A stretch of DNA of 64,000 nt from Nannocystis pusilla (GTDB taxonomy: Bacteria; Myxococcota_A; Polyangia; Nannocystales; Nannocystaceae): NCBI RefSeq assembly GCF_049060185.1, contig NZ_JBMEQO010000002.1, one strand, 5' to 3'. Below the pieces are notes generated by a model that saw nothing but the letters and a program-made list of their open reading frames with translations, was not told where the DNA came from and did no database searches. How positions within the stretch are numbered: the first letter of the stretch is position 1; every line of letters begins with the position of its first letter. A program made the translations under genes and the position numbers. Shown piece by piece: positions 1,795-63,940 of this stretch.

Positions 1795-2547
1795 GTGCGC
1801 GTCCGCTGCGAAGAGGGCGAGCTGATCCATCGGCTGTTCCTCGGGACAGGTCCCGGAGGACATGTCGCATTGGACACCGACGGGATCGCCGCGCTGGCCG
1901 ACGCGGTCGAGCAGGCGGTCGCGGGCCCGGTGCGCGCGCTGGTGATCGCCAGCGAGGGCCCCGAGTTCTGCGCCGGCATGGACCTCGCGGCCGCGCTGCG
2001 GACCCCGTCGGCGCAGATGCGCGAGGCGATGCAGCGCTTCGCCGGCTGCCTCGAGCTGCTGGCGAGCGCGAAGCTGGCGACGATCGCGGTGGTCACCGGC
2101 GCGGCCAGCGGCGGCGGGGTCGGCCTGGCGGCCGCGTGCGACCTGGTGGTGGCGGCGCCGACGGCCACGTTCGCGCTGCCGGAGCTGCGCTACGGGCTGG
2201 TGCCGGCGGTGATCTTCCCGGCCCTCGAGGCCCGGATCGGCGCGCGGCGGACCCGGCGGCTGGCGCTCACCGGCGAGCTTGTGACCGCGGCCCAGGCCGA
2301 GCCGTGGGGCCTCGTGGACGTGGTCGCGGACGACCCGGACAAGGCGCTGCGCGGGCTCTTGCGCTCGCTGCTGCGCGCGCCCGCAGGCGGTGGCGACGCT
2401 CAAGCGGATCACCGGGCCGGCGGGGCAGGGCGGGGTGGCCCAGACCGCGGCCGACCTCGAGGACCCCGAGCTGCGGGCGGCGCTGGCGGCCCTGCTGGCC
2501 GAGGGGCAGGCGCCGCCGTGGTTCGCCAGGCTGAAAGGACAGGAATG
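1795..2547 (+). CDS. Enoyl-CoA hydratase/isomerase family, ECH1-like (crotonase fold); one frame change near 2385
   Basis: GTG start with GGAGGTGA RBS at 1783-1790. Crotonase motifs (ASEGPEFCAGMDL, GGGVGLAAACD). The C-terminal ...TLKRITGPAGQGGVAQTAADLEDPELRAALAALLAEGQAPPWFARLKGQE* is in a second frame, stop 2545-2547. Three 14-bp GGACA units sit at 1844-1885 in the 5' coding region. Confidence 0.6.
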
Positions 2548-3321
2548 AACGCGCATGTCCCAACAGACAGCCTCGTCGAGGTGACGCTCGAGCGCGACGG
2601 CGTGGCCGTGCTGACCATGCGCGACGCGGCCGGCAAGAACGCGTTCGGCCGGGCGTTCGTCGCCGTGTTGACGCGCGCGCTCGAGGAGCTCGGCCGGCGC
2701 GCCGACGTGCGCGTGGTCGTGATTGCCGGTTTGCCCGAGGTGTTCTCCGCCGGCGGCGACCGCGACGTCCTGCTCGGCCTCGCCGACGGCACGATCGCCC
2801 CGTACGACCTGCTGCTGACGCGGGCGTTGCTCGAGGTGCCGGTGCCGACGATCGCCGCGATGGCGGGGCCCGCGGTCGGCGGCGGCCTGGTGTTCGGCCT
2901 CGCCTGCGACATGGTCGTGATGGCCCGCGAGAGCCGCTACGGCGCCAATTTCATGGACCTCGGCTTCACGCCGGGGATGGGCGCGACGCGCCTCGTGCAG
3001 TTCGCGTTCGGCGAGTACGTCGGGGCCGAGATGCTGTTCGGCTCGCAGTACTTCCGCGGCGAGCAGCTGGCGGGGCGCGGCCAGGTCAACGCCGTCGTGC
3101 CGCGCGCCGAGGTGCTGCCGCGGGCGCTCGACATGGCGGCGCGGATCGCCGACAAGCCGCGGGCTGCGCTGCTGTTGCTCAAACGTGCGCTGGCGTTGCC
3201 GCGCCGACGCGCCTTCGAGGAGGCGCGCACGGTCGAGTCGATGATGCACGAGGTATGCTTCGCCGACCCGGAGACGGTGGCGCGGATCCGCACGAACTAC
3301 GGGCCAGGCCAGGGAGGATGA
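2546..3321 (+). CDS. Enoyl-CoA hydratase/isomerase family, ECH2-like
   Basis: ATG overlaps the ECH1 stop (ATGA). 258 aa crotonase fold (VVIAGLPEVFSAGGD, AAMAGPAVGGGLVFGLACD). Confidence 0.7.
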
Positions 3322-3324
3322 CGC

Positions 3325-4140
3325 TTGCTCAATGACTTCAAGGACAGGGTCGTCTTGATCACGGGCGGGACGCGCGGCATCGGCCTCGCGTGCGCGCTCG
3401 CGTTCGGGCGCCAGGGCGCGCGCACGGTGCTGACGCACCGCTGGGGCTCGGCCGACGAGGACGCGCTGAAGGCCCGCTTCGTCGCCGTCGGGGCCCCGGC
3501 GCCGCTGGTGATCGAGGCCGACGCGTCGCGCGAGGAGGACACCGACAAGCTGACCGCGCGGCTCAAGGAGGAGTGCGACGGCGTGTGGGCGTTCATCAGC
3601 AACGTCTGCGTGGTCCAGCGCGGCGAAGGCCCGGAGAAGCACACCCGGCGCGCGCTGTACAAGAGCCTCGAGTACTCGAGCTGGCCGTTCGTCGGCTACC
3701 TGCAGGCGCTGCACGCCGCGTTCGGTCGCTACCCCCGCTACGCGCTGGCGATGTCGTCCGACGGGCCCGACACGCACTACCCCGGCTACGACTACGTGGC
3801 GGTGGCCAAGGCGGTGCTCGAGACGTTCGTGCGCTACATGAGCACGCACCTGCACGAGCACGGCTGCATCGTCAACGCCCTGCGCACCCGCCAGGTCATG
3901 ACCGAGAGCTACGAGCAGATGTTCGCCGCCCAGCAGCGCGAGCTGGCGGGCAAGTTCCCCGAGTTCGCGTGCACCGTCGACGAGGTCGCCGACACGACCC
4001 TCGCGCTGTGCAGCGGGCTGTTCGACGCGATGGGCGGGCAGGTGCTGACGCTCGACCGCGGCGCGGCGTTCGTCGACAACGTCGCCACGCTCGGGCCGCG
4101 GCTCGTCGGCGACAGCGACAAGGAAGGAGCTCCGGCGTGA
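3325..4140 (+). CDS. FabI-like enoyl-[ACP] reductase / SDR
   Basis: TGGTRGIG glycine motif; HYPGYDYVAVAKAVLETFVRYM matches the FabI Y-x6-K active-site region (compare E. coli FabI YNVMGLAKASLEANVRYM). TTG start 4 bp after the ECH2 stop. Confidence 0.7.
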   Translation: MLNDFKDRVVLITGGTRGIGLACALAFGRQGARTVLTHRWGSADEDALKARFVAVGAPAPLVIEADASREEDTDKLTARLKEECDGVWAFISNVCVVQRGEGPEKHTRRALYKSLEYSSWPFVGYLQALHAAFGRYPRYALAMSSDGPDTHYPGYDYVAVAKAVLETFVRYMSTHLHEHGCIVNALRTRQVMTESYEQMFAAQQRELAGKFPEFACTVDEVADTTLALCSGLFDAMGGQVLTLDRGAAFVDNVATLGPRLVGDSDKEGAPA

Positions 4141-5017: not shown

Positions 5018-5280
5018 GCACCCGCGATGATGTCTTGGCCGTCGTCAAGCGCCACCTCGTGGACACCGTCGAAGGGATCGATGCGGCCCAGGTCGACCCC
5101 GCCAAGTCGATGAAGGACCTCGGCGCCAACAGCCTCGACATCGTCGAGGTCGTCTCCTGCAGCATGCGCGAGCTCAAGGTGAAGATCCCCCGCGCCGAGC
5201 TCAACAAGTTGACGAACATCAACGAGCTCGTCGACCTGCTGCACAAGACGGTGCAAGAGAAGCAGGCCGCCGCGTCCTGA
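5014..5280 (+). CDS. Acyl carrier protein
   Basis: 88 aa. DLGANSLDIVEV phosphopantetheine-attachment motif (D-S-L). ATGA overlap with the upstream gene. Confidence 0.8.
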   Translation: MSTRDDVLAVVKRHLVDTVEGIDAAQVDPAKSMKDLGANSLDIVEVVSCSMRELKVKIPRAELNKLTNINELVDLLHKTVQEKQAAAS

Positions 5281-5459
5281 GCGCCGTCGGCGTGTGTCCC
5301 CACGGACAGGGTCCGGGGACATGACCGATCGGCCAGACACGTTCGCGCCCGCGCTGCGCTCGCCGCAGCCCGGGCGCGCTCGTCGTACCTGGACCTCGCG
5401 CGTCGCTTAGCCGAGTGGCTCGAGCGCAGTCGTGCGCGGCGCTGGCAGCTGGGGTGCAC

Positions 5460-5935
5460 CAGGCCTTCGGGGCAGGTGTGGACTTCGGGCGGAGAACGCG
5501 GCGAGGCGGTACGCCTGGCCTTCGGGTCAGGTGTAGACTCGTTCGCTAGGCAGCCGGAGGACCAGCGCCGCGGCGAACCGGCGCACCTAGGCCCGAGGCC
5601 AGGTGCGGCCTTCGGGCGCCGCAGGCAGCGTTTCGGCGTTACATCTGGCCTGAGGGGCAGGTGCGGACTTCAGGCGGGTCAGCGCTGCGGCGAGGATGCG
5701 CCTGCCTTTGGGTCAGGTGCGGACTCTGTCGGGGTAGCCGGCGGACTGGCGCCGCGGTGAACCGACGCACCAGGTTTGAGGCCAGGTGCGGCCCTCGGGC
5801 GCGGCAGTCGGCGGGCAGCGCTGCGCCGTCACACTTTGCCTGAGGGGCAGGTGCGGACTTCGGGCGCGCTGCGGCGAGGATGCGCCCTGGCCTTGGGCCA
5901 GGTACGGAGCTCGGTTGAGCCCGCGGGTCGGCGCG
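5460..5935. repeat. Imperfect higher-order tandem repeat, about 186 bp unit, about 2.5 copies, each of three sub-units beginning CAGGTG(C/T)GG
   Basis: CAGGTGYGGAC recurs at about 5476, 5531, 5603, 5663, 5716, 5783, 5848, 5899. Units at 5476, 5663 and 5848 are near-identical. Lies between convergent gene ends. Confidence 0.7.
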
Positions 5936-6822: not shown

Positions 6823-7048
6823 TCAGGAGCGCGGCTTGGCGTTGTCCGGGACGACGAGCCCCTGCGCGTCGATGGTCTTCCAGAAGGCGGGCCAGCGCGA
6901 GATCTCGCGCAGCGTGGGCAGCACGTCGACGGGGTTGTGCGGGTACGTGCGGCGCAGGAACAGCACCGCGGCCTCGGCCGTCGGCGCCTCGAGGAAGTGC
7001 GCCTCGCCGGGCGGGTACTCGTAGCGGAACTTCAGGAGGGGCGGGGTC
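6823..7048 (-). CDS. Hypothetical small protein (about 75 aa)
   Basis: GTG start overlaps the upstream gene stop. GC-rich third positions. VTPPLLKFRYEYPPGEAHFLEAPTAEAAVLFLRRTYPHNPVDVLPTLREISRWPAFWKTIDAQGLVVPDNAKPRS. Confidence 0.35.
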
Positions 7049-7652
7049 ACGGGGTGGGCTTCCGGTGGGTATCCCACAGCACCTCGGGGACGGCGAAGGC
7101 GTGGGCCGCGGCGCGGGCGACGACGAAGAACCAGTCGCTCAGGCGGTTGATGTAGCGGACGGCCTCGCCGCGGACCGGCTCGACGCGGGCGAGCGCGACG
7201 ACGCTGCGCTCGGCGCGGCGGCACACGGTGCGCGCGAGGTGGGCCCAGGCGCCGAGCGGCCCGCCGCCCGGCAGGATGAAGCTGCGCAGCGGCGGCAGGT
7301 CGGCGTTCCACGCGTCGAGCTCGTGCTCGAGGCGCGTGACGTCGGCCTCCTCGACCTTGAGCGGCGCCTTGCCTTCGGTCGCGCCGGGCGTCGCCAGCTC
7401 GGCGCCGAGGTCGAACAGCTCTTGCTGGATCCGCGCCAGCGAGGCGTCGAGTGCGGCCAGGAACTCGCGGCGCTCCCCGGGCTCGCCCACGCGGGAGAGC
7501 TCGACGCGCAGCACGCCGAGCACCGCGTTGAGCTCGTCGACCTCGCCGTAGGCGGCGACCCGCGGGGCGTCCTTGCCGACGGTGTCGCCGCTGGCGAGCA
7601 TCGTGTCGCCGCGGTCACCGAACTTCGTGTAGACCTTGCTGATGTAGACCAC
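7047..7652 (-). CDS. ATP:cob(I)alamin adenosyltransferase, PduO-type
   Basis: YTKFGDRGDTMLASGDTVGKDAPRVAAYGEVDELNAVLG N-terminus and the overall 200-aa PduO/MMAB architecture. Confidence 0.8.
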   Translation of the reverse strand: MVYISKVYTKFGDRGDTMLASGDTVGKDAPRVAAYGEVDELNAVLGVLRVELSRVGEPGERREFLAALDASLARIQQELFDLGAELATPGATEGKAPLKVEEADVTRLEHELDAWNADLPPLRSFILPGGGPLGAWAHLARTVCRRAERSVVALARVEPVRGEAVRYINRLSDWFFVVARAAAHAFAVPEVLWDTHRKPTP

Positions 7653-7707
7653 GGGGCTGTCCGATCGGCCAGGTTCGTACGGCCAGGTGCTCGAGAGCAG
7701 GTGCCCA

Positions 7708-7732
7708 GGGACATGCCCGTGAGGACATGTCC
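7708..7732. repeat. Palindrome pair GGGACATGCC / GGACATGTCC, 15 bp apart
   Basis: Intergenic, 3' of the roadblock gene and 5' of the adenosyltransferase gene. Confidence 0.6.
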
Positions 7733-7747
7733 CTCAGAACAGCCGAC

Positions 7748-8263
7748 TCAGCGACCCTTCAGCGCGGCGATCAGGCGCGGCTGGAGCTCGGGGATGATGA
7801 CGAACACCCACCCGAGCTGCGCCTTGACGCCGTCGACGAGGATCGCCCAGCGATGGCGTTCGTCGAGCTCGATGACGAAGATCAGGAGGCCGTTGTCGCC
7901 TTCGATGATGAACTTGTTGATGCCCTTGGCGAGGGCATCCTCCGAGCGGGTCAGCGCGTTGTGCAGCTGCTCGGACAGGCGGTTGAACATGGCGCACGCC
8001 TTGGGCGCCGAGTTGATGCCCGCGAGCGACATGCCCGAGGCCTTGCTGATGATGTCGACGCTGATGAGGCCGCCCATGAGGTGGTCGTCGAGCTCCTCGA
8101 GGATGGCCTTCACGACCTTGAGGTCCATGTCTGACAGCTCCTTGTCGCGCGCTGCAACGTTGGGGGCGGCCGCGTAGGCCGGCGTCGGTGGGGTGATGGG
8201 CAGCGGCGGAAGTGGCGGGACGGTGACCGGCGCAGCTCGCTGCGGCTTCTCGATCACCGGCAC
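7748..8263 (-). CDS. Roadblock/LC7 domain protein (MglB-like)
   Basis: 171 aa. C-terminal roadblock fold pattern (GLLIFVIELDERHRWAILVDGVKAQLGWV). Pro-rich N-terminus. Confidence 0.7.
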   Translation of the reverse strand: MPVIEKPQRAAPVTVPPLPPLPITPPTPAYAAAPNVAARDKELSDMDLKVVKAILEELDDHLMGGLISVDIISKASGMSLAGINSAPKACAMFNRLSEQLHNALTRSEDALAKGINKFIIEGDNGLLIFVIELDERHRWAILVDGVKAQLGWVFVIIPELQPRLIAALKGR

Positions 8264-11139: not shown

Positions 11140-11474
11140 CGTCAGCGAGGGCCACGCAATCGCGGTCGCAAGGCCCAGCAGACCGAGGCCGGCGGCGCTG
11201 ACCCAAGGGCAGGTCCTTCCGGACATGTCGTGCTGGACAGGCAGACCGCGGCGGTCGGCGCGAACAGGACCAGGGCCAGCGCGAGCGCGAAGCCGAGGCC
11301 GGCGAGCGCGAGGAGGCCGCCGGTGTCGACGGGCTGACGCGGGCGCAGCTGAACCAGGCTCTCGCCGGCGTCGGGCGCGGCCTGTTGCCTCGCGCGCGCG
11401 CGGACCAGGCTGGCGAGGACCCCGATGAGCCCGACCGCTGCGACGAGCGGCAGGTAGTCGAGCAGGGGGCCCAT
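11140..11474 (-). CDS. Hypothetical small membrane protein (possibly the N-terminus of a larger repeat-containing protein)
   Basis: Start right after the macro gene stop. Two hydrophobic segments (LPLVAAVGLIGVLASLV, LLALAGLGFALALALVLFA). The 3' end is unclear. Confidence 0.3.
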
Positions 11475-21469: not shown

Positions 21470-22350
21470 TCAGGGGCTCGCCGGGGTGTGAGAGGGATGC
21501 CGGAGGGCCACGCGCAGCAGCGTCTTCAGGCGCGCGTTGCCGACCCGCTTGCCGATCGCGGCCGGACCCGCGGGCCGCTCCCACCGCGGGGGCGGCCGTC
21601 CGGCGAGGGCGGCGAGGCGAGCGAAGATCTCGCGCCGCGGGGTGTGGTCGTCGTCGACGACGTTGATGACGCCGCGCTCGTCCGGCGCGAGGGTCAAGGC
21701 GGCGAGGACGGCTTGCACCGCGTCCTCGCAGTGGATGAGGTTGGTCGGCTGCATACCATCGCCCGCGAGGACTGCGTCGTCGCCAGCGCCGCGATAGAGG
21801 CGGAACAGTTCGCGACCCGGACCGTAGAGGCCGCCGAGACGGAGGATCGTCCACGGCACCGCGTGGCGCGTGCAGGTGTCGCGCACCAGCTCCTCGGCCT
21901 CGCGCTGCACGCGGCCCCGCGGCTCGTCGGGCCACTCGAGGCAGTCGTCGTCGAGCCAGCCGTCGCGATCGGGCAGGGCCGAGGTGGATGAGGTGTAGAC
22001 GAGGCGGGTGAGCGGGAGGGTGACCGCCGCGGCGAGCAGGCGCCGGGTGCCCTCGACGTAGAGCTCGCGGCGGTCCTGCTGCTTGCCGGGGGCGTAGCAG
22101 ACGACCAGCGCGCGCGCGCCGGCGAGTACCGCGGCGATGTCGGCCGGAGCGAGCGCGGCGACGTCGAGCGGGCGGAGCTCGATGCCCTCCGGGACATGTC
22201 TGTTGGGCCATGTCCCGGAGCGCGTGGTCGCAAGGACAGGCGGATCGCCAGCGCCCCCGGTCGCCGCGAGTGCGGCGGCCACGGGGGCGCCGAGGAAGCC
22301 GGCGCCGACGACGGCGACCGGGCGAGCGAGAGGGACGCGCCGCTGGGCAC
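21470..22350 (-). CDS. NAD(P)-dependent epimerase/dehydratase family protein (N-terminus needs a frame change near 22315)
   Basis: VAVVGAGFLGAPVAAAL Rossmann motif upstream of the first in-frame start. GTG (MPSGAS) at about 22350 is in another frame. Contains the inverted repeat CCGGGACATG(N10)CATGTCCCGG at 22189-22219, encoding SGTWPNRHVPE. Confidence 0.6.
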
Positions 22351-23314: not shown

Positions 23315-24017
23315 ATGACCATTCGTGCGCAGACGCGCACCGCTCGCCACCAGCGGCTCGCTGCGGCGATCGAGACGCGTCGGCTCGAGCGCCGGCGACG
23401 AGCGAAGATCCTGGCGATCTGGGCGGTCGTGTCGACGATCGCCGTCATCGTCACCGCGCTCATCCGTGGGGTGTTTGACCCGCTCGAGCTGGTGTTTTTC
23501 GCGAGCACTCTGGGGACGATCGCGTTCGCGTCGTTCTCGGGGGTGCTCGCTCGCCCGCTGCCGTTGATGGAGCGGCAAGCGCTGGCGGGCGCGGACGCGG
23601 CGTTGGCCCTCGACCACCTGCCGCCCCGCGTGGCCGAGCTGGCCCGAGACACGCGCGCTGCGGCTCGCGGTCGAGGCCGCCGACCCGGCCGACGCGGCGA
23701 TCGACGCCTGGGTGTGGAGTTGGATCCGCAGCGTCCGCGAGCTCGGGCCCGAGGAGCGCGAGCTCATCGCCCACGTCGGGATCTCGACCCGTGACGTCGA
23801 GGCGGTGCTGCTCGGTGAGGCGCTCGACGCCGGCCCGGCGGACGGCCCCGTGGACAGCCCCGCGCTGCCGGCCAAGCGCGCGGCGGGACGGGGTCCGCGG
23901 CTGGCGCCAGTCGAGTTGGCGGCGCTGGTGCGCCGGGTCGAGCTGCTGGCCGAGCACTTCGAGGCGTTCGAGGTGGCGCTGCTGCGCTATCGGCCGGGGA
24001 CCTACCGCGGGTCCTGA
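23315..24017 (+). CDS. Hypothetical membrane protein (frame change near 23645)
   Basis: MTIRAQTRTARHQ...ILAIWAVVSTIAVIVTALI...FFASTLGTIAFASFSGVLA, then ...LRLAVEAADPADAAIDAWVWSWIRSVRELGPEERELIAHVGISTRDVEAVLL... in the next frame. Confidence 0.4.
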
Positions 24018-24075
24018 GGGACATGTCTGTCACGACATGTCCGCCGCGACATGTCCTTCAGGACTCGCGGAAGCT
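24018..24075. repeat. Phased array of four 14-bp units (GACATGTCTGTCAC / GACATGTCCGCCGC / GACATGTCCTTCAG / GACTCGCGGAAGCT)
   Basis: Exact 14-bp phasing, between convergent gene ends (24017 plus strand, 24058 minus strand). Confidence 0.75.
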
Positions 24076-24969
24076 GACCATGACGGCGTGGGCGTCGTGC
24101 TTGTGCTCGAAGTTGGTGGCGCGGCGGAAGGCGGTGGCGTCGACGACGATCGGGTGCTTGATGTGGGCGACGGCGCCGGGCGGCAGGTAGGGCAGGCCGA
24201 AGCGGCCGGCGCTGTACTTGAAGAGCGGCTCGGGGATCGGGATCGGCTGGCGACCGGTGCCGCGGGCCAGCGTCGACAGCGGGACGGGCGGCGGGCCGGC
24301 GACGTTGTAGATCCCGTTCAGCTGGTGATCGACGGCGCGCACGATCGCCTCGACGCCGTCCTCGTCGTGCATGAAGTGGTAGAGCGGATCGAAGCCGAGG
24401 ATCATCGGCACGCGCGGGCCGGCGAGGAAGCTGGCGAGGGTGCCGCGGTGCGTCGGGCCGAGCATGTAGACCATGCGCAGGACGGCGGTCTTGAGCCCGG
24501 GCCAGCGCCACAGCGCGGCGGCGGCGAACAGGTCGGCGGCGACGAGGTCGGCCAGCTCGGGGAAGGTCGAGACGGCCAGCGGCGGCTCCTCCTCGGTGCG
24601 GTACAGCGGCGCGTCGGGGGCGGCGCCGTAGATCGTGTGACGGCCGACGAACACGGCCTGCTTGACGCCGAACTCGTGGCAGTACTCGAACACGAGGCGC
24701 GTGCCGTGGAGGTTGATGCGCAGCCGCTCCTCGGCGCTGGCGGTGAAGTGGGTGATCGTCGCCATGTGGATGACGACGTCGGGCCGGTGCTGGCGGAACA
24801 CGTCGGCGGCCGGCCGCTTGCGCACGTCGGTCTGGAACACGTGCACGCCCTCAGGCGCGTCGGGCCAGGGGCGGCGGTCGATGCCGAGGATCTCGTCGCC
24901 GCGGGCGCGCAGACGCAGGGCGACCATGCGCGCGTGGGCGCCGTTGATGCCGGTGATCAGGATCTTCAT
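24058..24969 (-). CDS. NAD-dependent epimerase/dehydratase family protein
   Basis: [20 protein letters not shown]...; extended-SDR fold. 303 aa, intact. Confidence 0.8.
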
Positions 24970-36289: not shown

Positions 36290-36400
36290 GCGTGAGGATG
36301 GTCGAAAGGACAGGACCTCGAGGACATGACCTCAGAGACATGGTCGGGGAGAGCATCGCCCCGGCGCGCGTGAGGCTGGTCGAAAGGACAGGTCAGTCGG
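36290..36400. repeat. Two copies (78 bp apart) of CGCGTGAGG(A/C)TGGTCGAAAGGACAGG, plus adjacent GGACATGACC / AGACATGGTC units
   Basis: Between the TetR stop (36393) and the pepF start; seen directly. Confidence 0.55.
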
Positions 36401-39114: not shown

Positions 39115-39897
39115 ATGTCGATCCAGGGCTACAGCGCATCGGAGTTCACCCACGAGGGCGTCACCAAGACGGTCTATCGGCGCGGGCGCGGCCCGGGGGT
39201 CATCATCATCACCGAGGTCCCCGGCATCCACGAGGCGGTGGTCACGTTCGCCAACCTGGTGGCGGACGCGGGCTTCACCGTGGTCCTGCCCGACCTGTTC
39301 GGCGAGCCGATGAAGCCGGTGTCCGGCGGCTACCTCGCCAGCACGATGCTCAAGCTGTGCGTGAGCAAAGAGTTCAAGCTGCTCGCCGGCCAGGAGTCGA
39401 GCCCGATCACGAACTGGCTGCGCGGCCTGGCCCGCGCGCTGCACAAGGAGCTCGGCGGCAAAGGCGTCGGCGCGATCGGCATGTGCCTGACGGGGAACTT
39501 CGCGCTGTCGATGGCGGTCGAGCCGTCGCTGATGGCGCCGGTGATGTCGCAGCCGGCGCTGCCGCTGCCGGTCGGCAAGGCCCGCCGCGGTCAGCTGGCG
39601 ATCGCGCCGGACGAGCTCGCCACGGTCAAGCGGCGGGTCAAGGACGAGGGCCTCAAGGTGCTCGGCCTGTGCTTCACCCACGACGGCAAGGTCCCGCGCG
39701 AGCGGTTCGAGACGCTGAAGCGCGAGCTCAAGGAGGGCTTCGAGGCGATCGAGATCGACTCCGGCCCGGGCAACGCCCACGGGATCAAGCCGTCGGCCCA
39801 CAGCGTGCTGACGGTCGACCTCGTGCGCGAGACCGGCCACCCGACCGAGCAGGCGCTGCAGCGCACGCTGTCGTTCCTGCGCGAGCGGCTGCAGTAA
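39115..39897 (+). CDS. Dienelactone hydrolase family protein
   Basis: 260 aa. GVIIITEVPGIHEAVVTFANLVADAGFTVVLPDLF, GAIGMCLTGNFAL nucleophile-elbow context. Confidence 0.7.
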   Translation: MSIQGYSASEFTHEGVTKTVYRRGRGPGVIIITEVPGIHEAVVTFANLVADAGFTVVLPDLFGEPMKPVSGGYLASTMLKLCVSKEFKLLAGQESSPITNWLRGLARALHKELGGKGVGAIGMCLTGNFALSMAVEPSLMAPVMSQPALPLPVGKARRGQLAIAPDELATVKRRVKDEGLKVLGLCFTHDGKVPRERFETLKRELKEGFEAIEIDSGPGNAHGIKPSAHSVLTVDLVRETGHPTEQALQRTLSFLRERLQ

Positions 39898-39920
39898 GAC
39901 CGCGAGGCTGCAAGGACGAA

Positions 39921-40000
39921 GGGCATGTCCGCGAGGGCATGCCCTTTGAACATGCCTTATCGGGCATGTCCTTCGGGTCATGGCCCACCGGACAGGGTCA
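39921..40000. repeat. Phased array of six GGRCATGYCC-type units at 14,14,13,14,14 bp (starts about 39921, 39935, 39949, 39962, 39976, 39990)
   Basis: GGGCATGTCC gcga GGGCATGCCC tttg AACATGCCTT atcg GGCATGTCCT tcgg GTCATGGCCC accg GACAGGGTCA. Between convergent gene ends, and overlaps the last 5 codons of the minus-strand gene. Confidence 0.75.
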
Positions 40001-40559
40001 CGTACAGCACCGGGACGGCGATCCCGAGCAGCACGAGCACGCCGCCGCGGCCGACCAGGCCCTTGCGGCCGGGCAGCATGAACAGGCCCGAGGCGGCGAG
40101 GAACAGCAGGAACACGGCGTAGCCGTCGGCGATGTAGGTCCAGGCCTTCTTGCCGCGGTTCAGGTGCAGCCAGTTGGCGATCCGCAGCAAGAGGCGCGGG
40201 CGCTGACCGTCCTCGAGGACGACGCCGCTGTCGAGGTCGACGTGGAGGGTGCTGCCGTCGAGGAGGATCGACAGCTCGCGCGCGTCGCTGCGGTAGACCT
40301 CGGTCGGCGGGCCGGTGAGGGCGAGCTCGGCGAGGACCTTGTCGGCGGCGGCGTGGTCGTCCTCGGGCAGCGGCACGGCGACCTGGTGGCGCGCCTCGTA
40401 GTTGTCGAAGTTCGGGTCCCAGTCGGCGATGTGATTGACCGCGAGGCCCGACAGCGCGTAGACGAAGGTGAGGCCGACGGCGACGTAGCCGATGTCGCGG
40501 TGGAGGGCGCGCAGCCAGGGCCGCCAGCGGACCGGGCGCCGGCGCTCGGGCTCAGGCAT
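39978..40559 (-). CDS. PepSY-associated TM-helix-like membrane protein (putative)
   Basis: WLRALHRDIGYVAVGLTFVYALSGL N-terminal TM and a C-terminal TM. Overlaps the downstream MsrP-like gene by 8 bp. Confidence 0.45.
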   Translation of the reverse strand: MPEPERRRPVRWRPWLRALHRDIGYVAVGLTFVYALSGLAVNHIADWDPNFDNYEARHQVAVPLPEDDHAAADKVLAELALTGPPTEVYRSDARELSILLDGSTLHVDLDSGVVLEDGQRPRLLLRIANWLHLNRGKKAWTYIADGYAVFLLFLAASGLFMLPGRKGLVGRGGVLVLLGIAVPVLYVTLSGGP

Positions 40560-43008: not shown

Positions 43009-45240
43009 TCAAGCCCTGCGGGCCGCAGCGCTCGCCCACGCACGCAGGGCCGTGATTTCGCCGGCACGACTGCGACTGAGCGGGATGGTCGCGGTGAGCG
43101 CGCGAGCGAGGTCGCGGCGCGCGAGCGGTCGCGACTCGGCGAACGCGTCGAGGCGAGCCTCCACGATCGCGCCCTCGATCTCGGCGCCCGAGAGTCCATC
43201 GGCCGCGCGAACGAGGTCGACGAGGTCGGGCAACGGATCAGCGAGGACCGGGGCGGCGCCCATGTGCGAGCGCGGCGCATGCTCGAGATGGATCTCCGCG
43301 ATGGCAGCGCGTTCGTCCGCATCGGGCAGGTCGACGAAGAAGATCTCGTCGAGACGGCCCCGACGTGTCAGCTCGGGCGGCAGACGCGTGACCTGATTGG
43401 CGGTGGCGACCACGAACACCGGACGTCGGCGCTCCTGCAGCCACGTGAGCAGTCCGCCCAGCACGCGCGCCGCGGTGCCGCCGTCGCTCGCCGGGCCCTC
43501 GCTGCCGGCCAGGCCCTTGTCGAGCTCGTCGATCCACAGCGCGACCGGAGCGATGCGCTCGACGGTCGCGGTGACGCGGCGCAGGTTGGCCTCGCTCTCG
43601 CCGAGCGTGCCGCCGTAGAGCCGGCCCGGCTCCAGCCGCAGGAGGCCGAGGCCGAGCGCGTGGGCGCAGACGCGGGCCGCCAGGCTCTTGCCGCAGCCCT
43701 GCACGCCGACGAGCAGGACGCCGCGCGGGTCGGGGATCGCGGCGGCGCGGGCCTCGGGGCGGAGGGCGAGGGCGCGGCGGGCCAGCCATTGCTTGAGCTG
43801 CGCGAGGCCGCCGAGCATGTCTGAAGGGACAGGTTCGACGCGCTCGAGCAGGCCGCCGCGGCGCAGCAGCTCGGCCTTGCCGGCGCCCAGCTCGGCGAGC
43901 GCGGCGTCGTCGGCGGGGGCATGGGCGGCGCGGCGCAGCAGTCGACGGGCCTGGTGCTCGGACAGGCCGAGCGCGGCGTGGGCGAGCTGCGACGCGCGGC
44001 GGTCGAGCGCGGCGGCAGGGCCGGGCCGGCCGGCGATCCGCAGCTCGTCGACGAGGTCGGCGGCGAGGCCGGTGAGCTCGTCGGCGTCGGGCAGCTCGAG
44101 CTCCAGCAGCTCGAGCTCGGGGATGGCGACGAGCGCAGGCGCGAGGTCGCCGACGACGACGACCGCCGGACCGACGCTGCGCTGCGCGAGCTCGCGGAGG
44201 GCTCGCAGAGCGACGGGCTCGAGCGGCGGTGGATCGAGCAGCACCCACAAGCCGGGATCGGGGTCGCGCAGGAGGCCGCGCAGGAGGTCGAGCAGCGGCT
44301 CGGGCGCGCCGAGGCCGTCGCGCCCGCCGGCGGCGCTCCAGGTGTGGACCGGCCAGTCGAGTTGTTCGCCCGTGTCCTCGCACAGCCGCAGCGCCCGCGC
44401 CTCGTCGACCGCGCGCAGGCCCAGGCCGCGCGCGCCGGCCTGCAGCGCCTCGCGTAGGCGGACGCGCGCGCGCGAACGGGGTGTCCTTCAGGTCATGTCT
44501 CACGGGGCATGTCCCTCGGACCATGTTAACCACGCGGCCAGCAGGTGGCCCTGGGCGGCGACCGACACCGGGCCGTCGTCGGCGAAGCAGAAGCCGTTCA
44601 GCCACAGGCGGGCGCCGCGGAGGCGCGCGAGGCGGCCGTGGAGCAGCGCGAGGTCGGCGGCGCAGGCGCGGGCGAGCTCGGCGCGGGCGCGCGGCGGGAT
44701 CGTGTCTGGCCAAAGGACAGGCGGTAGGCGGGCTTGCCGTCGACGCGGAGGACGTCGAGGCGCAGGGCGCCACTCGGATCGGCGGCGACGAGCTGGGCGC
44801 GCCGCAGCAGGTCGGGGAACGGCCGCGCCCGCGAGCCGCGGAAGTCGAGGGCGAAGAACACCGGCGCCGCGGCGGAGCCGGGCAGGGCGCGGGTGAGGCC
44901 GCGGGCGAGGGCCCGGGCCGCCGCCTCGAGCGCGCCGGGGACCTGCGGCAGGGTGAGCAGGCCGGCCACCGCGGCGGGGCTGCCGGCGGCCGAGAGGGCG
45001 GCGACGACGGCCCGCAGGCGGCCAGGGCGCGCGGCGCCAGGGCCACCAGGCGAGCGACGGCGGGCTCGTCGAACTCGCCGCGGGCGAGCAGGTCGTCGAG
45101 CTCGCGGAGGGCCTCGTCGGCGTCGCCGCCGGCGGGCGGGGTGGGGACCAACCAGAGGTGCGGGCCGGGCAGGTCGCGGGCGCGGTCGAGGGCCGCGAGG
45201 GTGTCCGATGGGACAGGTCCGTCCGAGCGCCGGCCGCTCA
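43009..45240 (-). CDS. AAA+ ATPase (classic-clade AAA domain at the C-terminus; N-terminal roughly 400 aa of unknown function; several frame changes)
   Basis: Walker A LLVGVQGCGKS, Walker B ALWIDELDK, second region of homology VVATANQVTRLPPELTRRGRLDEIFFVDLPD. GTG start 2 bp after the smpB stop. Confidence 0.55.
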
Positions 45241-52032: not shown

Positions 52033-52058
52033 GCCACTGCGGGGCAGGCTGTTCGAGA

Positions 52059-52082
52059 GGGCATGTCCATGCGGACATGTCC
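52059..52082. repeat. Palindrome pair GGGCATGTCC / GGACATGTCC, 14 bp apart
   Basis: Between convergent ends of the cyclase gene (52032) and the DUF218 gene (52090). Confidence 0.65.
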
Positions 52083-52089
52083 TCTTCGA

Positions 52090-52689
52090 TCATTCGAGGC
52101 GGTAGTCCTTGAACAGGTAGGCGTAGAAGCCGACGACCTCGCGCAGCAGCGACCACGGCTCGCGCAGCTCGAGCTCGAGGTCGGCGTGCGCGCCGGTGGC
52201 CTCGACGCCGAAGCGGCGCAGCGCCAGCTTGGTGCGGGTGACGTGGTAGTACTGGCTGACGGCGATGGCGGACCGCTCGCCGCGGGCGCGCAGGTCGGCG
52301 GCGACGAAGCGGGCGGTGGCGTGGGTGTTGACGCCGCCGCGGTCGACTGCGATCCGCTCGGTCGGGACGCCGCGCGCGACCAGGTAGTCGCGCATGACGT
52401 CGGCCTCGTGCGGGCTGCCGGGATCCTGGCCGCCGCTGACGATGAGGCGCGGGGCGAGGCCGGCGGCGTGCAGGGCGGCGGCGCGATCGAGCCGCAGTTG
52501 GAGGCGGCGCGCGGGCTCGCCGGCGGGGCTGACGTGGTTGCCGAGGACGACCGCGACGTCAGCGGTGCGGCCCTCGTCGGTGCAGCCGTCGACGGCGATG
52601 ACGAGCAGGTGGACGAGGCCCCAGACGCACAGGAGGGCGAGGAGGCGGAGGATGTACTTTCGCACCTGGCGCATGGGACCTGTCCTCAC
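52090..52689 (-). CDS. DUF218 (YdcF/ElyC-like) domain protein
   Basis: N-terminal TM helix; ADVAVVLGNHVSPAG...RLIVSGG... pattern. The start codon region overlaps a GGGACCTGTCC / CGGACCTGTG motif pair (52677-52700). Confidence 0.6.
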   Translation of the reverse strand: MRTGPMRQVRKYILRLLALLCVWGLVHLLVIAVDGCTDEGRTADVAVVLGNHVSPAGEPARRLQLRLDRAAALHAAGLAPRLIVSGGQDPGSPHEADVMRDYLVARGVPTERIAVDRGGVNTHATARFVAADLRARGERSAIAVSQYYHVTRTKLALRRFGVEATGAHADLELELREPWSLLREVVGFYAYLFKDYRLE

Positions 52690-53684: not shown

Positions 53685-53798
53685 CTAACCGCAGCGAGCG
53701 GCCTTCGTCGAGGTGCCGGTGGGACGGGTGGCCAGGAGCGTCGGCTCGCTCGGAGCCGCGCGAGAATGTTGGAGAGGGCATGGCCGGATGGCCAGGTG

Positions 53799-59385: not shown

Positions 59386-60407
59386 ATGACCGTCCTCGTC
59401 ACCGGCGCCGCGGGTCACATCGGCGCGAATTAGTCCGTACGTTGCTGTCTCGCGGCGAGCGCGTCCGCGTGCTCGTCCGCAATTCCCAGCGCGCGCTCGC
59501 GGGACTCGACGTCGAACGCGTCACCGGCGACGTGCGCGATCCGGACGCGGCGCGCCGCGCGACCGCAGGCGTCGACGTCGTGTATCACCTCGCGGCCCAG
59601 ATCTCGATCTCGGGCGACCCGCGGGGCTGGTGCGCGCGGTCAACGTCGACGGCGTGCGCTCGATCGCCGAGGCGGCGCTGGCCGCGGGCGTGCGCCGGCT
59701 GGTCCACTGCAGCTCGGTCCACGCGTTCGACCTCTACCGCGAGGGCACGAGCGGCGTGGAGGTCGACGAGCGCTGGCCGCGGGTGCCCGACGAGCCGAGC
59801 CACTTCGCGTACGACCGCTCGAAGGCGGCCGGCGAGCGGGCGCTCCGCGAGGTGATGGGTCGTGGCCTCGACGCTGTGATCGTGCATCCCTCGGGCGTGA
59901 TCGGGCCGTACGACTTCGGACCGTCGCGCATGGGCCGGATGTTCCTGCAGCTGTACCGGCGGTCGCTGCCGAGCCTGATCGACGGGGCGTTCGACTTCGT
60001 CGACGTGCGCGACGTGGTGGCCGGGATGCTGGCCGCGCAGGCCCGCGGCGAGAACGGCGAGAACTACCTGCTGACGGGGCACACGGTGCACGTGCGCGAC
60101 ATCGGAGCCATCGCCGAGGCCATCACCGGCGTCAAGCCGCCGCGGCTGGTGGCGCCGATCTGGTTCGCGCGCATCGGGGTGCCGCTGTTCGGGGTCGCGG
60201 GCGCGGTGATGCGGCAGGAGCCGCTCTACACCCACGAGTCGCTGTCGGTGCTGGCCACGCGCGCGCTTCGACCACGGCAAGGCCGAGCGCGCGCTCGGCT
60301 ACACGGTCCGGCCGTTCGCCGACAGCGTGCGCGACATCTACGAGTGGTTCGACGCCGCGGGGATGCTCGGCAAGAAGCGCCTGGCGAGCAGCGAGACGCG
60401 GATCTGA
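59386..60407 (+). CDS. NAD-dependent epimerase/dehydratase family protein (about three frame changes)
   Basis: MTVLVTGAAGHIGAN, DVVYHLAAQISISGDP, fragments in ORFs 59322-59855 and 59630-60445. C-terminal ...DIYEWFDAAGMLGKKRLASSETRI*. Confidence 0.65.
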
Positions 60408-60419
60408 GCCGCTGTCCCG

Positions 60420-60545
60420 CGGGACATGGCCTGCAGGACAGGTAATGAAATGCCCGAGAGCGCGGATGGCTCTCGGGGCATGGTGAAAGGGCAGGTTCGA
60501 TGGGGCATGTCGCGGAGGACATGCCCGAAAGGTCACCAGGACGGC
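60420..60545. repeat. Phased array of about nine 14-bp units built on (G)GRCATG / GRCAGG cores
   Basis: Cores at about 60425, 60439, 60451, 60465, 60479, 60491, 60506, 60520, 60534. Between convergent ends, and overlaps the stop of the small lipoprotein gene. Confidence 0.7.
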
Positions 60546-62613: not shown

Positions 62614-62622
62614 CGGGCAGGC

Positions 62623-62690
62623 TGGTCGACGGGACAGGTCGCGCGGATGGTCGAATGGACATGACTTGAAGGACATGTCCTGAGATGTCC
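62623..62690. repeat. Array of five GGACA-type units (GGACAGGTCG / GGATGGTCGA / GGACATGACT / GGACATGTCC / AGATGTCCG) at about 10-14 bp spacing
   Basis: Between convergent ends of the methyltransferase gene (about 62613) and the PHP-domain gene (62708). Confidence 0.65.
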
Positions 62691-62707
62691 GTTCGGCGTG
62701 CGGGGCC

Positions 62708-63940
62708 TCAGTGGCGGCGGCGGCGGAGCGCGAGCAGGCTGGCCGCGAGGACAGGTGAGAGCGGGCCGTCGTGGCGGCAGCCGCAGCCGCTCTCCGGCGG
62801 GCTCGCTCCGGCCGAGTCGCTGGCGGTGGCGGGGTCGGAGCTCCCGGTGCTCGCGGTGGTCTCGGGGCCGGTGGTCGGGTCGCCGGTGGTCTCGTGGCCG
62901 GTGGTCGGGGCTTCGACCGGCGGGGCGGCGATCCACAAGTGGTTGGTAACGGTGCGCGGCTTGCCGTCGACGAGGACCTCGGCGCGGACGCGCGTGGAGC
63001 CGGCGGCGGGCGGCTCGACGAGGAAGTCGTGGGTGAACGGGTCGCCGGCGACGGGCACCGCATCGAGGGGTTTGCGGTCGCGGACCAGGCGGACGCTCGC
63101 GCCCGCGGGGGCGCCGGTGACCCGCACTGTGATGACGGCCTGGCTCGCTTCGAGGCTGTCCCCGGGGACATGTGTCCCGGAGGACAGCTCGAGCATCGGG
63201 TCGGCCGGGCCCTGCAGCTTGACGACGGTGCGGCCGGCGCGGAGGCCGGCGAGGATGGCGTCGACGCCGAGGGTATCGGCGTACACGAGGGTGGTGGGGT
63301 CGCCGATCGGGCTGTCGAAGCCGCCGAGGTCGACGCCGGCCTTGTGATCGTCGCTGCCGCCGATCGGGGCCGGACGGTGGCCCTGGTCGCACAGGTCGTC
63401 CCAGAAGCGCATGGCGTCGTCGGTGAAGAACATGCCGGCCTTGTCGAGGCCGCCGGTCGCGATCTCGACGGCGCCGAGGCGAGCAGGGTCGAGGTCGAGT
63501 TGCCAGGCGCAGCCGATGCACAGATCGCCGAGCGCGAGGGCGGGGTGATTGGCGCTCAGCACGGCGCCCTGCAGGTCGTAGGCGTCGGCCGCGGCGGTGA
63601 TGCTGACGCCGGGCTGGCCGAGCTTGTGATCGACCCAGGCGGTCGCGCCGATGGCGTTCATGTGGCCGGCGTAGGTGGTGAACTCGCAGCCGGGGACGAA
63701 CAGGAGGTCGGGGTGGCGGGCCTGGGCGTCGGCGAAGAAGTCGAGGTGCGAGGTGGTGTTGTGGTCGGTGACGACCACGAAGTCGAGGCCGCGGCCGCGT
63801 GCGAACTCGGCGATGGCGTCGAGGGTCGGCGAGGCGTCGCCGCTCTCGCGCGAGTGGACGTGGAAGTCGCCAGCGTACCGGCGCGGGCCGCCGCCGAGCG
63901 TGGCCGGCTGCCAGGGCGCGCGCTCGGGCTGGGCCGGCAA
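62708..63940 (-). CDS. PHP-domain metal-dependent phosphoesterase-like protein with C-terminal MYXO-CTERM sorting signal
   Basis: GDFHVHSRESGDASPTLDAIAEFARGRGLDFVVVTDHN. C-terminal ...GCGCRHDGPLSPVLAASLLALRRRRH (GCGC + hydrophobic + RRRR). Internal palindrome CCGGGACACATGTCCCCGG at about 63160-63185 encodes SGTHVPG. Confidence 0.75.
   Translation of the reverse strand: MPAQPERAPWQPATLGGGPRRYAGDFHVHSRESGDASPTLDAIAEFARGRGLDFVVVTDHNTTSHLDFFADAQARHPDLLFVPGCEFTTYAGHMNAIGATAWVDHKLGQPGVSITAAADAYDLQGAVLSANHPALALGDLCIGCAWQLDLDPARLGAVEIATGGLDKAGMFFTDDAMRFWDDLCDQGHRPAPIGGSDDHKAGVDLGGFDSPIGDPTTLVYADTLGVDAILAGLRAGRTVVKLQGPADPMLELSSGTHVPGDSLEASQAVITVRVTGAPAGASVRLVRDRKPLDAVPVAGDPFTHDFLVEPPAAGSTRVRAEVLVDGKPRTVTNHLWIAAPPVEAPTTGHETTGDPTTGPETTASTGSSDPATASDSAGASPPESGCGCRHDGPLSPVLAASLLALRRRRH

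Follow-up and report, generated by a model that had tools for sequence, protein, structure and literature searches.

Phased palindromic repeats of Nannocystis are probably a REP/BIME-like family on a 14-bp lattice

The window, a stretch of 64 kb of Nannocystis DNA analysed here at its full length, carries a family of short palindromic repeats with a period of 14 bp. We think it rather likely that these repeats are a lineage-specific family of extragenic palindromes of the REP/BIME type, with hairpins that act mainly as mRNA 3'-end structures and arrays that grow by slippage. The functional unit is better read as a pair of adjacent reverse-complementary decamers than as a single decamer. To judge from sequence searches, the family hardly occurs outside Nannocystis: when GGRCATGYCC-N4-GGRCATGYCC was searched across 185,579 species, this genus accounted for about 104 of the 120 genome matches listed first. 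It also appears to be previously undescribed, as a first, sequence-only reading of the window had suspected, since no description of it was found in the searchable literature; a search of Rfam gave no match for the hairpins.

The observation of a repeat family was confirmed. The motif GGRCAKGYCC occurs 27 times in the window, compared with 1.75 +/- 1.55 times in dinucleotide-preserving shuffles (6 in the highest), and 14 pairs of units are spaced by 14 bp (0.01 in simulations), with zero pairs at 13 or 15 bp. The autocorrelation of CATG has its maxima at lag 14 (17 pairs), then at 27/28 and 42. Thus the dispersed family and its 14-bp period, as first proposed, both stand far above shuffled or simulated sequence. 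Decamers with at most two mismatches to GGACATGTCC number 62, and since Markov simulations already yield 26.5 +/- 5.5, many isolated "units" are due to chance. Taken alone, the CAGG/CCTG variants show no enrichment (about 5 occur where base composition predicts 3.3), and they count as family only when they are in register with CATG units. At E<0.01 a covariance model trained solely on other genomes (R1) detects about 10 sites in the window and not one in 219 kb of other loci; relaxing the cut-off to E<1 brings the total in the window to 17, and a loose unit-chaining rule gives 17 arrays of at least two units; by these counts the original figure of at least 20 loci is somewhat generous. The arrays first reported at 24018-24075, 39921-40000, 60420-60545 and 62623-62690 were all recovered, each between convergent gene ends. 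The sites in the window are as follows.

7704..7737: top-scoring single hairpin, cAGGGACATGCCC-gtga-GGACATGTCCCTc, 16 nt past the stop of ORF 7748..8263(-) and upstream of a cobalamin adenosyltransferase gene, 7047..7652(-) (Pfam); R1 41.3 bits, E 2.6e-9; fold -29.6 kcal/mol, z -4.6; degenerate CAGG units run in register from it back to 7653.
24014..24061: three units filling the 40-nt gap between convergent 23712..24017(+) and an epimerase gene, 24058..24969(-); the palindrome TCCTGAgg...ccTTCAGGA includes the stop codons of both; R1 29.3 and 27.3 bits; fold -35.3 kcal/mol, z -4.6.
39916..39990: five to six units, one of 13 nt, between convergent dienelactone hydrolase, 39115..39897(+), and PepSY_TM, 39978..40559(-), genes; the final unit, GGTCATGGCC, carries the PepSY_TM stop codon; R1 37.1 bits (39916-39949) and 21.6 bits (39957-39990); fold z -4.4; no array here in syntenic relatives of 74-75% amino acid identity.
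44477..44528: four units between same-direction minus-strand genes; R1 26.7 bits.
52054..52087: near-perfect single hairpin, GAGAGGGCATGTCC-atgc-GGACATGTCCTCTT, between a convergent cyclase-domain gene, ..52032(+), and a DUF218 gene, 52090..52674(-) (Pfam); R1 35.6 bits, E 1e-7; fold -28 kcal/mol, z -6.3.
60408..60531: composite array between convergent 59630..60445(+) and 60533..(-), with units at 60422 and 60436 and three in 60489-60526, separated by an unrelated perfect hairpin (60450-60481); R1 31.9 bits (60498-60531); fold z -4.1 and -5.4.
62623..62690: degenerate, four to five units between the end of a plus-strand gene (62613) and a PHP-domain gene, 62708..(-); R1 27.0 bits (62652-62685); fold z -2.3, plus strand only.
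32904..32960: three to four units (CATG at 32913, 32927 and 32941) in the A+T-rich 5' end of ORF 32913..34136(+); R1 E 0.018.
1839..1872: two units that may be an insertion or a look-alike, forming a hairpin with pairing at 8 of 10 positions, in the 5' part of an enoyl-CoA hydratase ORF (Pfam), encoding GTGPGGHV; R1 19.2 bits, E 0.005.
36308..36350: weak, three units, GGACAGGACC / GGACATGACC / AGACATGGTC, 48 nt past the stop of ORF 36393..(-), partly duplicated in N. pusilla; R1 E 0.1.
5297..5340: degenerate remnant, TGTCC-ccac-GGACAGGGTCC-gg-GGACATGACC-gatc-GGCCAGACAC, shortly past the stop codon at 5278-5280 of a convergent junction.
11202..11244: weak, three units, GGGCAGGTCC ttcc GGACATGTCG tgct GGACAGGCAG; R1 E 0.1.
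22187..22220: look-alike inside an epimerase-like gene, encoding SGTWPNRHVPEG; R1 26.8 bits.

Copies in promoter regions had also been proposed. Within the window 32904..32960 is the sole clear family member in such a 5' or promoter-type position; most of the others are weak (E 0.1-0.7) and lie 3' of the upstream gene's stop in same-direction pairs. As for copies inside coding sequence, those at 1844 and 22189 do lie in ORFs; the proposal that such copies belong to the family was not upheld, to judge from the epimerase copy (22189). Its peptide (SGTWPxxHVPEG) is conserved in a protein alignment of orthologues down to 54% identity, far beyond the genus, and a codon comparison (loci L203, L204 and L205) finds that a family-less relative already possesses most of this DNA. 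We therefore rejected it as an inserted element, and at least one "coding" copy is an ancient look-alike without any insertion. A further candidate unit, GGACAGGGTC at 39990-39999, was rejected as conserved coding sequence.

Two paired decamers on one strand, of RNA or of DNA, are predicted to fold into a 10-bp arm with a 4-nt loop, and the stem is often lengthened by flanking GAAG...CTTC, which gives the consensus CGAAG-GGRCATGYCC-NNNN-GGRCATGYCC-CTTCG. Predicted folds of arrays have z-scores mostly between -4 and -6. Each arm is nearly self-complementary around CATG, so hairpins, decayed units and linkers share one 14-bp lattice. Any unit can pair with either neighbour; a frequent arrangement is hairpin-linker-hairpin with a period of 42 bp, while complete palindromes made of a doublet of doublets (e.g. 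locus L030) exist without being the rule. Position 3 of a unit shows Watson-Crick covariation with position 8 of the next (A-T 62, G-C 32, A-C 19, G-T 14; Fisher p=5.5e-7), and inverted combinations of neighbours outnumber direct copies by 38 to 11. If pairs are picked by their CATG cores only, complementarity between units still exceeds that of shuffles (z 3-4). In flanks that were not used in the selection, 51.3% of cells are paired against 43.2% after shuffling, a value that none of 500 shuffles reached. As clustered, imperfect palindromes that are extragenic, high-copy and lineage-specific, the repeats fall within the definition of REP/BIME elements. The initial view that they do not fit a classical REP was not upheld, because read as inverted repeats they are imperfect palindromes of 24-34 nt with covarying arms.

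The siting is that of REPs too, with copies at convergent gene ends and some across stop codons, as had been noticed at the outset. In loci that were chosen because they bear the motif, and with genes that we called from codon usage, there are 5.3 arrays per kb in convergent intergenic regions, 1.4 in same-direction, 0.41 in divergent and 0.09 in coding sequence. Among the strong hairpins 142 (about 69%) are convergent, 51 same-direction, 4 divergent and 10 intragenic, and the median distance to the upstream stop codon is 23 nt. Kinases, sigma-54 activators and DUF4215 proteins recur as neighbours of arrays; genes with arrays on both sides are ordinary. The hairpins probably serve as 3'-end structures of transcripts, where they would stop or protect mRNAs arriving from both sides. 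They have no U-tract (on average 1.3-1.6 T in the 8 nt past the stem, with no asymmetry even between same-direction genes), which would make them behave like REPs and unlike canonical intrinsic terminators; none passes a canonical terminator scan. G.U exceeds A.C mismatches on the sense strand only weakly (66 vs 47, p=0.09), so action at the RNA level is putative, and the covariation could also stem from folding of single-stranded DNA or from template-switch repair of quasi-palindromes.

The arrays are also dynamic, as had been supposed: orthologous sites in Nannocystis species differ in unit number and sequence. The window shares 95% identity with N. pusilla Na p29. The 24019 array has three units in N. 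punicea, three in a 96.6%-identical strain and five (+28 bp) in N. bainbridge; the 44477 array has four units in the window and six in N. punicea (+28 bp), among them perfect 14-nt direct duplicates, GGGCATGTCTCATG; and the 39921 array has a 37-nt insertion in N. pusilla. Between orthologous arrays the arms are retained and the loops altered. Arrays probably grow by slippage of units, that is, 14-bp units would be gained and lost via slipped-strand mispairing assisted by the hairpins, and some copying mechanism would spread them across the genome. The enzyme that comes to mind first is a single-strand transposase of the RAYT type; looking for transposases near such arrays had been suggested at the outset, and the 0.98 Mb of sequence examined contains no RAYT/RayT-like ORF.

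Such turnover, which is fast at orthologous sites, would also be expected if the repeats were selfish or neutral palindromic DNA without host function, copied by a transposase or by slippage and surviving where least harmful (gene 3' ends and above all convergent junctions), with the complementarity of the arms owed to the way copies are made or to hairpin-templated repair, and not to selection. The placement matches sites where insertion is harmless; direct duplicates exist; a close strain shows 2 changes in 38 nt of array at 3.4% overall divergence, which is about the neutral rate; and the 39916..39990 array is missing at the corresponding junction in syntenic relatives of 74-75% amino acid identity that lack the family. 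We nevertheless regard this as unlikely. Nearly all sampled convergent junctions are occupied (146 arrays across 131 junctions), and at a junction that bears an array here, one family-less relative has another kind of tandem repeat, which hints at a need for a structured element. Units diverge less than spacers (10% vs 20%, p=0.03 in a small sample), a weak argument, and the search for a mobilising enzyme was negative as described above.

Selection for hairpins alone does not explain the invariant CATG core, which is conserved as sequence and uncompensated (only 2 of 101 variant pairs are complementary) and is retained even in unpaired linker units; the REP-like reading accounts for neither the core nor the 14-bp lattice. 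They could reflect a lattice for binding to double-stranded DNA, in which a lineage-specific dimeric protein (a nucleoid-associated protein, a gyrase-type enzyme or a transcription roadblock) reads each CATG-centred decamer and marks convergent boundaries, loading cooperatively every 14 bp, so that three units span four helical turns. Units keep strictly to distances of 14, 28 or 42 bp and hardly ever lie 13 or 15 bp apart, unpaired linkers and the flanks of strong hairpins keep to the lattice (85% G/C at lattice positions), and BIMEs of E. coli bind gyrase and IHF. On the other hand, single units shun the self-palindromic form: in the pairs selected by CATG cores, position 3 of a unit complements its own position 8 less often than in shuffles (z -6.3), and it is the neighbours that covary. 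Stems reach into the spacers, and 17% of loops are of the GNRA type or its complement (background 4.9%); loop spacers are diverse, and non-loop spacers are mostly CTTC, GAAG, CTCG or CGAG. Taken together, the covariation, the stem extension and the loops point to intrastrand pairing, and as no candidate protein emerged we find a binding lattice quite improbable.

It is very improbable that the decamer is simply over-represented through CATG-specific methylation or repair bias, in the manner of cyanobacterial HIP1 (GCGATCGC), or through a DNA-uptake receptor, with inverted pairs at gene ends as a by-product like the inverted DUS pairs of Neisseria: the invariant core is a typical methyltransferase site, the decamer is genus-specific and even within called genes it is about 11-fold above expectation, but in these motif-bearing loci it is 25 times denser outside genes, most copies are phased in arrays and few are solitary, CATG itself is merely 1.2-fold above Markov expectation in the window, and Nannocystis is not known to be naturally competent. 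HIP1, the highly iterated palindrome of cyanobacteria, is likewise a short palindrome around a 4-bp core of the methylation type that one lineage has in vast excess, but it occurs as single copies across coding and non-coding DNA. The uptake sequences of Neisseria and Haemophilus are genus-specific 10-12-mers of very high copy number, and two of them in inverted orientation form a terminator-like hairpin 3' of genes; unlike the overwhelmingly extragenic and phased Nannocystis copies, they are non-palindromic, often stand singly inside genes and serve a competence receptor.

The SMAG repeats of Stenotrophomonas maltophilia also resemble the REP/BIME-like family proposed here. They are palindromes of about 22-25 nt that occur as extragenic monomers, dimers and trimers in a G+C-rich genome, with a proposed action at mRNA 3' ends, but they have a GTAG head, are tied to RAYT genes and show neither the 14-bp lattice nor self-complementary arms. 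The REPs and BIME clusters of E. coli and other enterobacteria share with the Nannocystis repeats the short imperfect palindromes forming stem-loops, the hundreds to thousands of extragenic copies, the location past stop codons and between convergent genes with few copies in promoter regions, and the mosaic clusters of inverted copies with short linkers that vary in number among relatives. The Nannocystis family differs in its unrelated sequence, its myxobacterial host, the lack of a 5' GTAG-type motif and of a RAYT in the sequence examined, and its nearly self-complementary arms (GGR-CATG-YCC), which result in one strict 14-bp lattice and in pairing in shifted registers. Like the REPIN-RAYT systems of Pseudomonas, it forms vertically inherited populations that differ among related genomes (Bertels and Rainey; PMC3337134, PMC3116915). 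A REPIN joins two REPs of 20-25 nt at a distance of about 70 bp and owes its replication to a single-copy RAYT that REPINs flank, and some classes bear flanking A/T runs, read as co-option for termination (PMC3337134, PMC3116915); the Nannocystis doublet measures 24-34 nt in total with a higher-order spacing of 42 bp, and its GAAG...CTTC flanks are a weak analogue of these runs. What REP elements are to E. coli and Pseudomonas, this family would be to Nannocystis, with a strict 14-base lattice as its unusual framework.

The motif GGRCAKGYCC has 27 matches on the two strands of the window, versus 1.75 ± 1.55 in dinucleotide-preserving shuffles of the window (maximum 6), so the dispersed motif family proposed by a sequence-only reading of this DNA is real. 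The period of 14 bp is exact. Among decamers with at most two mismatches from GGACATGTCC, 14 pairs have precisely this spacing, compared with 0.01 in Markov simulations, and no pair in the window is spaced by 13 or 15 bp. The autocorrelation of CATG alone has maxima at lags 14, 27/28 and 42 in the window, and in the Nannocystis loci units are spaced by 14 bp (363 cases), 28 bp (67) or 42 bp (18), with nearly nothing off the lattice. Against a composition-matched null, both the count and the phasing are thus far over chance. Note that the simulations still yield 26.5 isolated "units" where 62 are observed, that is, single look-alikes are common. In the window, the CAGG/CCTG variants are not enriched by themselves, and the representation of CATG is unremarkable (ratio 1.21). 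The four arrays that had been named individually read as described. The claimed minimum of 20 loci errs slightly on the high side, as R1, a covariance model of the hairpin built from other genomes without the window, places about 10 sites in the window at E < 0.01 and 17 at E < 1.

Adjoining units are inverted copies of one another. We collected every match to GGRCATGYCC-N4-GGRCATGYCC, a pattern which is neutral as to the combination of R and Y. Between position 3 of one unit and position 8 of the next, complementarity is well beyond expectation (A-T in 62 pairs, G-C in 32, A-C in 19 and G-T in 14; p = 5.5e-7). Pairs of asymmetric units are fully complementary in 38 cases (GGACATGCCC..GGGCATGTCC 21, GGGCATGTCC..GGACATGCCC 17) versus 11 direct copies, which rules out a reading as direct tandem repeats; perfect 14-nt direct duplicates occur in some arrays. 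When pairs are picked on their CATG cores only, complementarity between units exceeds that of shuffles at four of six outer positions (z 2.8-4.0) and positions 3 and 8 inside one unit are anti-complementary (z -6.3), so that a unit is not an independent palindromic site.

Pairing at the five flanking positions, which had no role in sequence selection, reaches 51.3% of cells versus 43.2% when shuffled (none of 500 shuffles was as high), and it is lower in slid registers. The stem continues into the spacers, and the 10-bp arm with its 4-nt loop is lengthened by 2-5 bp. Stem-extending spacers are chiefly CTTC, GAAG, CTCG and CGAG. Loop spacers are diverse, GCGA/TCGC being the most frequent, and 17% of loops are of the GNRA form or its complement, versus a background of 4.9%. 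The consensus element is CGAAG-GGRCATGYCC-NNNN-GGRCATGYCC-CTTCG; over 133 hairpins the consensus reads CnnnnGGACATGTCC..., with GAAG/CTTC-like flanks and without a GTAG-type 5' tetranucleotide. Examples from the window fold on either strand with z-scores between -4 and -6.

Strong hairpins are most often spaced as hairpin-linker-hairpin with an offset of 42 bp (10 cases), where a decayed unit with CATG still in register serves as linker. Arrays of 5-7 units are common. Some five-unit arrays are full palindromes, as at locus L030 (a-b-x-a-b). Over all arrays, the mean complementarity of units i and i+2 is 3.03, under the random value of 3.33.

The position of the arrays relative to genes was analysed in 108 Nannocystis sequences (0.91 Mb), using our own codon-usage gene calls, in which stops are reliable and starts less so. 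Intergenic arrays of at least two units lie between convergent genes in 146 cases, between genes of the same direction in 102 and between divergent genes in 14; another 69 are inside genes. Per kb this gives 5.3, 1.4, 0.41 and 0.09 arrays, respectively, in loci that were selected for containing the motif. For strong hairpins the four counts are 142, 51, 4 and 10. In same-direction pairs, the array follows the upstream stop codon at a median of 23 nt. The decamer itself is 25 times denser outside called genes than inside (1.74 versus 0.070 per kb), and 262 of the 314 decamers outside genes are in register with another copy. With about 10 strong sites found by R1 in the unselected 64-kb window, extrapolation gives copies of the order of 10^3 per genome. 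All five large arrays of the window are in convergent junctions, and a sixth such junction holds a degenerate remnant; together with the 142 convergent versus 4 divergent strong hairpins, this bears out the REP-like site preference suggested earlier. The genes beside the arrays are ordinary (epimerases, DUF218, cyclase, dienelactone hydrolase, PepSY_TM, cobalamin adenosyltransferase). Three features at or near such arrays are:

5297-5340: degenerate CATG array that opens a convergent junction
24014-24061: palindrome spanning the stop codons of both genes
60450-60481: perfect hairpin ATGCCCGAGAGC-N7-GCTCTCGGGGCAT between the halves of the 60408-60531 array, outside the decamer family

The junction opened by the first of these also contains a 184-bp tandem repeat (5457-5915, 2.5 copies, 77% identity).

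The sequence-only reading had also listed copies inside coding sequence and in promoter regions:

1839-1872: copy in the N-terminal part of the enoyl-CoA hydratase domain
22187-22220: copy in an epimerase-like gene, truly intragenic, R1 26.8 bits, encoding SGTWPNRHVPEG
32904-32960: sole clear member with a 5' location, in A+T-rich DNA
36308, 41738, 51158 and 52676: weak R1 matches (E 0.1-0.7), mostly 3' of the upstream gene's stop codon

The first two are indeed intragenic. An in-frame insertion of the kind known as RPE in Rickettsia is rejected for the epimerase copy: its peptide SGTWPxxHVPEG is kept in 24 of 24 aligned orthologues, down to 54% identity, and half of its DNA motif, GGGACATGGCCC, is found in L205, a relative without the decamer family. 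Judged from these alignments, the copy did not arise by insertion; it is either an old coding feature or a look-alike. The member at 32904-32960 is clear, and the four weak matches lie mostly past an upstream stop.

Two further observations concern these genes. Two gene starts share the 14-mer CATGGGACCTGTCC (51168-51181 and 52672-52685), which gives the ATG of a cyclase-domain gene (+) and, as reverse complement, that of a DUF218 gene (-); this could be a coincidence. In the epimerase-like gene (21470..about 22365, -), the C-run at 22332-22335 has one C fewer than in L207, a strain of 96.6% identity, and in N. punicea (L203), and the reading frame shifts as a result between the GTG-PSGAS start and the Rossmann motif. 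Either the assembly has a homopolymer error here or the frameshift is real.

We scanned one genome per species from 185,579 species for GGRCATGYCC-N4-GGRCATGYCC. Among the first 120 stretches listed, about 104 are from Nannocystis (N. exedens, pusilla, punicea, bainbridge, radixulma, strain RBIL2 and MAGs), and the other matches listed are one each in unrelated taxa. When run on other bacteria and on more distant relatives (219 kb of loci), R1 stays without a match at E < 0.01, and Rfam at gathering thresholds has none in the whole window. In the searchable literature we found no bacterial use of the decamer, no report of Nannocystis repeats and none of REP or RAYT in myxobacteria; the only papers sharing the decamer concern p53 response elements, a coincidence. 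The decamer family is real and lineage-specific, and no earlier description of it was found in that literature.

The arrays differ among close relatives (identity to the window is 95% over 7.4 kb for N. pusilla Na p29 and 91% over 8 kb for N. punicea), and the copy-number variation expected for a dynamic element is seen at orthologous loci. At junction 24019 there are three units in the window, in the 96.6%-identical strain (with two substitutions) and in N. punicea, versus five in N. bainbridge (+28 bp), whose array contains a perfect 14-nt direct duplicate. Site 44477 has four units versus six in N. punicea, and site 39921 has 5-6, 7 and 3+4 units in three genomes, the last with a 37-nt insertion. 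Such +28-bp differences and perfect direct duplicates fit arrays that would grow by slippage of 14-bp units. In a pair from RBIL2 and pusilla, two hairpins and their linker are retained, both loops have changed, and the lone arm change turns a G.U into a G-C. Over ten ungapped orthologous pairs, divergence is 10% in units versus 20% in spacers (p = 0.03, a small sample).

Metagenomic relatives form a gradient at the junction of the dienelactone hydrolase and PepSY_TM genes. At 84-86% protein identity the arrays are variant or degenerate, for example three GGTTCATGGCC units with 14-bp spacing; at 74-75%, with the same convergent order, only 4-35 nt separate the genes and there is no array. It is thus within this lineage that the family was gained and diversified. 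Two metagenome relatives, with 86% (L123) and 73% (L205) amino acid identity, have the following repeats:

L123 2290-2350: three GGTTCATGRCC variant units, 14-bp period, 3' of the dienelactone hydrolase orthologue
L205 7975-8060: tandem repeat of about 27 bp, CGCGGGCCTGC...TCTCGCGG, in a convergent junction where Nannocystis has a CATG array

The former, missed by R1, suggests that lineage-specific unit variants exist; the convergent junction of the latter seems to be a preferred place for structured repeats whose sequence is lineage-specific.

The sequence-only reading had held that the arrays are not a classical REP, and here we disagree. Compared with the defining features of REP and REPIN (PMC3337134), the family consists of short imperfect palindromes, in the REP size range of about 20-40 nt, that can form a stem-loop, it is mostly extragenic and of high copy, it is found at 3' ends and convergent junctions and rarely in divergent regions, it forms BIME-like clusters of inverted copies with short linker motifs, and its sequence is genus-specific. 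On these grounds we take it for the REP/BIME counterpart in Nannocystis, a family of extragenic palindromes that is REP/BIME-like in kind and a distinct variant in architecture: its arms are self-complementary, its 14-bp lattice is strict, a GTAG head is lacking, and the 0.98 Mb searched showed no RAYT.

In REPINs, two spaced inverted REPs make one long hairpin; in Nannocystis, some five-unit arrays are full palindromes of the L030 type, and over all arrays units i and i+2 are less complementary than random. The two share the same intragenomic ecology; what sets the Nannocystis family apart is an arm that is itself palindromic, the strict lattice and a RAYT that is so far unseen. REP classes tied to RAYTs have a conserved GTAG-type 5' tetranucleotide, which the Nannocystis hairpins lack. 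The REPIN-RAYT system includes a single-copy RAYT (an HUH/Y1 transposase) flanked by repeats. Searches with E. coli RayT (tblastn and phmmer) covered 0.98 Mb of Nannocystis DNA, roughly 1% of the genomes, and gave no homologue. Of 12 genes with arrays on both sides, the 10 scanned are ordinary enzymes and include no transposase. Protein families that recur near arrays (kinases, sigma-54 activators, DUF4215) are the usual large families of myxobacteria, and neither set contains a recurring mobile-element gene.

Judging from placement and structure, the hairpins most likely act on transcripts: a symmetric hairpin at a convergent junction would give both incoming mRNAs a structured 3' end. On the sense strand there is an excess of G.U (66) over A.C (47), and in same-direction pairs GNRA loops on the sense strand number 4 versus 2, very small numbers. 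Since the G.U excess is weak (p = 0.09), single-stranded DNA, or a copying mechanism alone, may instead lie behind the hairpin family.

The CATG core behaves like conserved sequence and not like structure. When unit pairs are chosen on the outer bases only, 191 of 292 are CATG/CATG, only 2 of the 101 variant pairs are compensated, and lattice positions beside strong hairpins are 85% conserved. Recent common descent and unit-wise slippage may be enough to explain both this conservation and the avoidance of self-symmetry. It is also conceivable, and we think rather unlikely, that the lattice is read by a Nannocystis-specific factor recognising the CATG-centred decamer by its sequence, which would make the arrays protein-dependent boundary elements instead of passive REP hairpins. 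Candidates would be a dedicated single-strand transposase or nuclease unlike known RAYTs, a system linked to a CATG methyltransferase, or a cooperative DNA-binding protein. Such a factor would explain the uncompensated core, the unpaired linkers that keep CATG and the units that shun self-palindromy, and the arrays at convergent gene ends would then serve termination, collision avoidance or supercoil handling.

Canonical intrinsic (Rho-independent) terminators are rejected, as the hairpins have no U-run (a mean of 1.3-1.6 T in the 8 nt 3' of the stem) and no family hairpin passes a terminator scan of 38000-57999, which gave 4 matches versus 4.2 expected by chance. We agree with the earlier view that a single transcription-factor site does not fit, as a palindromic operator is rejected by units that are not self-symmetric and by only 14 of 357 arrays being between divergent genes. 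Single copies of the HIP1 palindrome occur alike in coding and non-coding DNA, whereas the Nannocystis decamer is 25 times rarer in coding DNA and mostly phased.

The window contains other, unrelated repeats. An intergenic tandem repeat of about 110 bp in 2.5 copies (19238-19507) has a CCCGATTGTCGGG-type mini-palindrome in each copy and, by synteny with the annotated L203, appears to lie at a convergent junction between peptidase A8 and chorismate-binding genes. Nested purine-rich tandem repeats (GAAGCGGCGACGCGACCTC...) with periods of 60, 132 and 192 bp occupy 10438-10828, where the gene caller yields no confident gene. Coding tandem repeats (GGCGGGAGCGACAGCGAGGGGACGAC..., 32981-33133) with periods of 15, 21, 30 and 33 nt lie in ORF 32913..34136(+), which has no Pfam match and probably encodes a secreted protein of low complexity.

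The genomes of myxobacteria are very large and their non-coding repeats almost unstudied, and for Nannocystis, a genus mined for natural products, no REP-type family is on record in the searchable literature. With an extrapolated thousand or so hairpins per genome, in most convergent junctions, the family would be a practical marker of transcript ends and operon boundaries. It is likely to cause problems in assembly and PCR and, because the number of units differs among relatives, it is a ready target for strain typing. Finally, the family is an out-group for the study of REPINs: as it combines a REPIN-like ecology with a palindromic arm and a 14-bp lattice, so far with no RAYT, it can test whether a dedicated transposase is required for REP-like populations, or whether slippage and selection for 3'-end hairpins suffice for their origin and spread.
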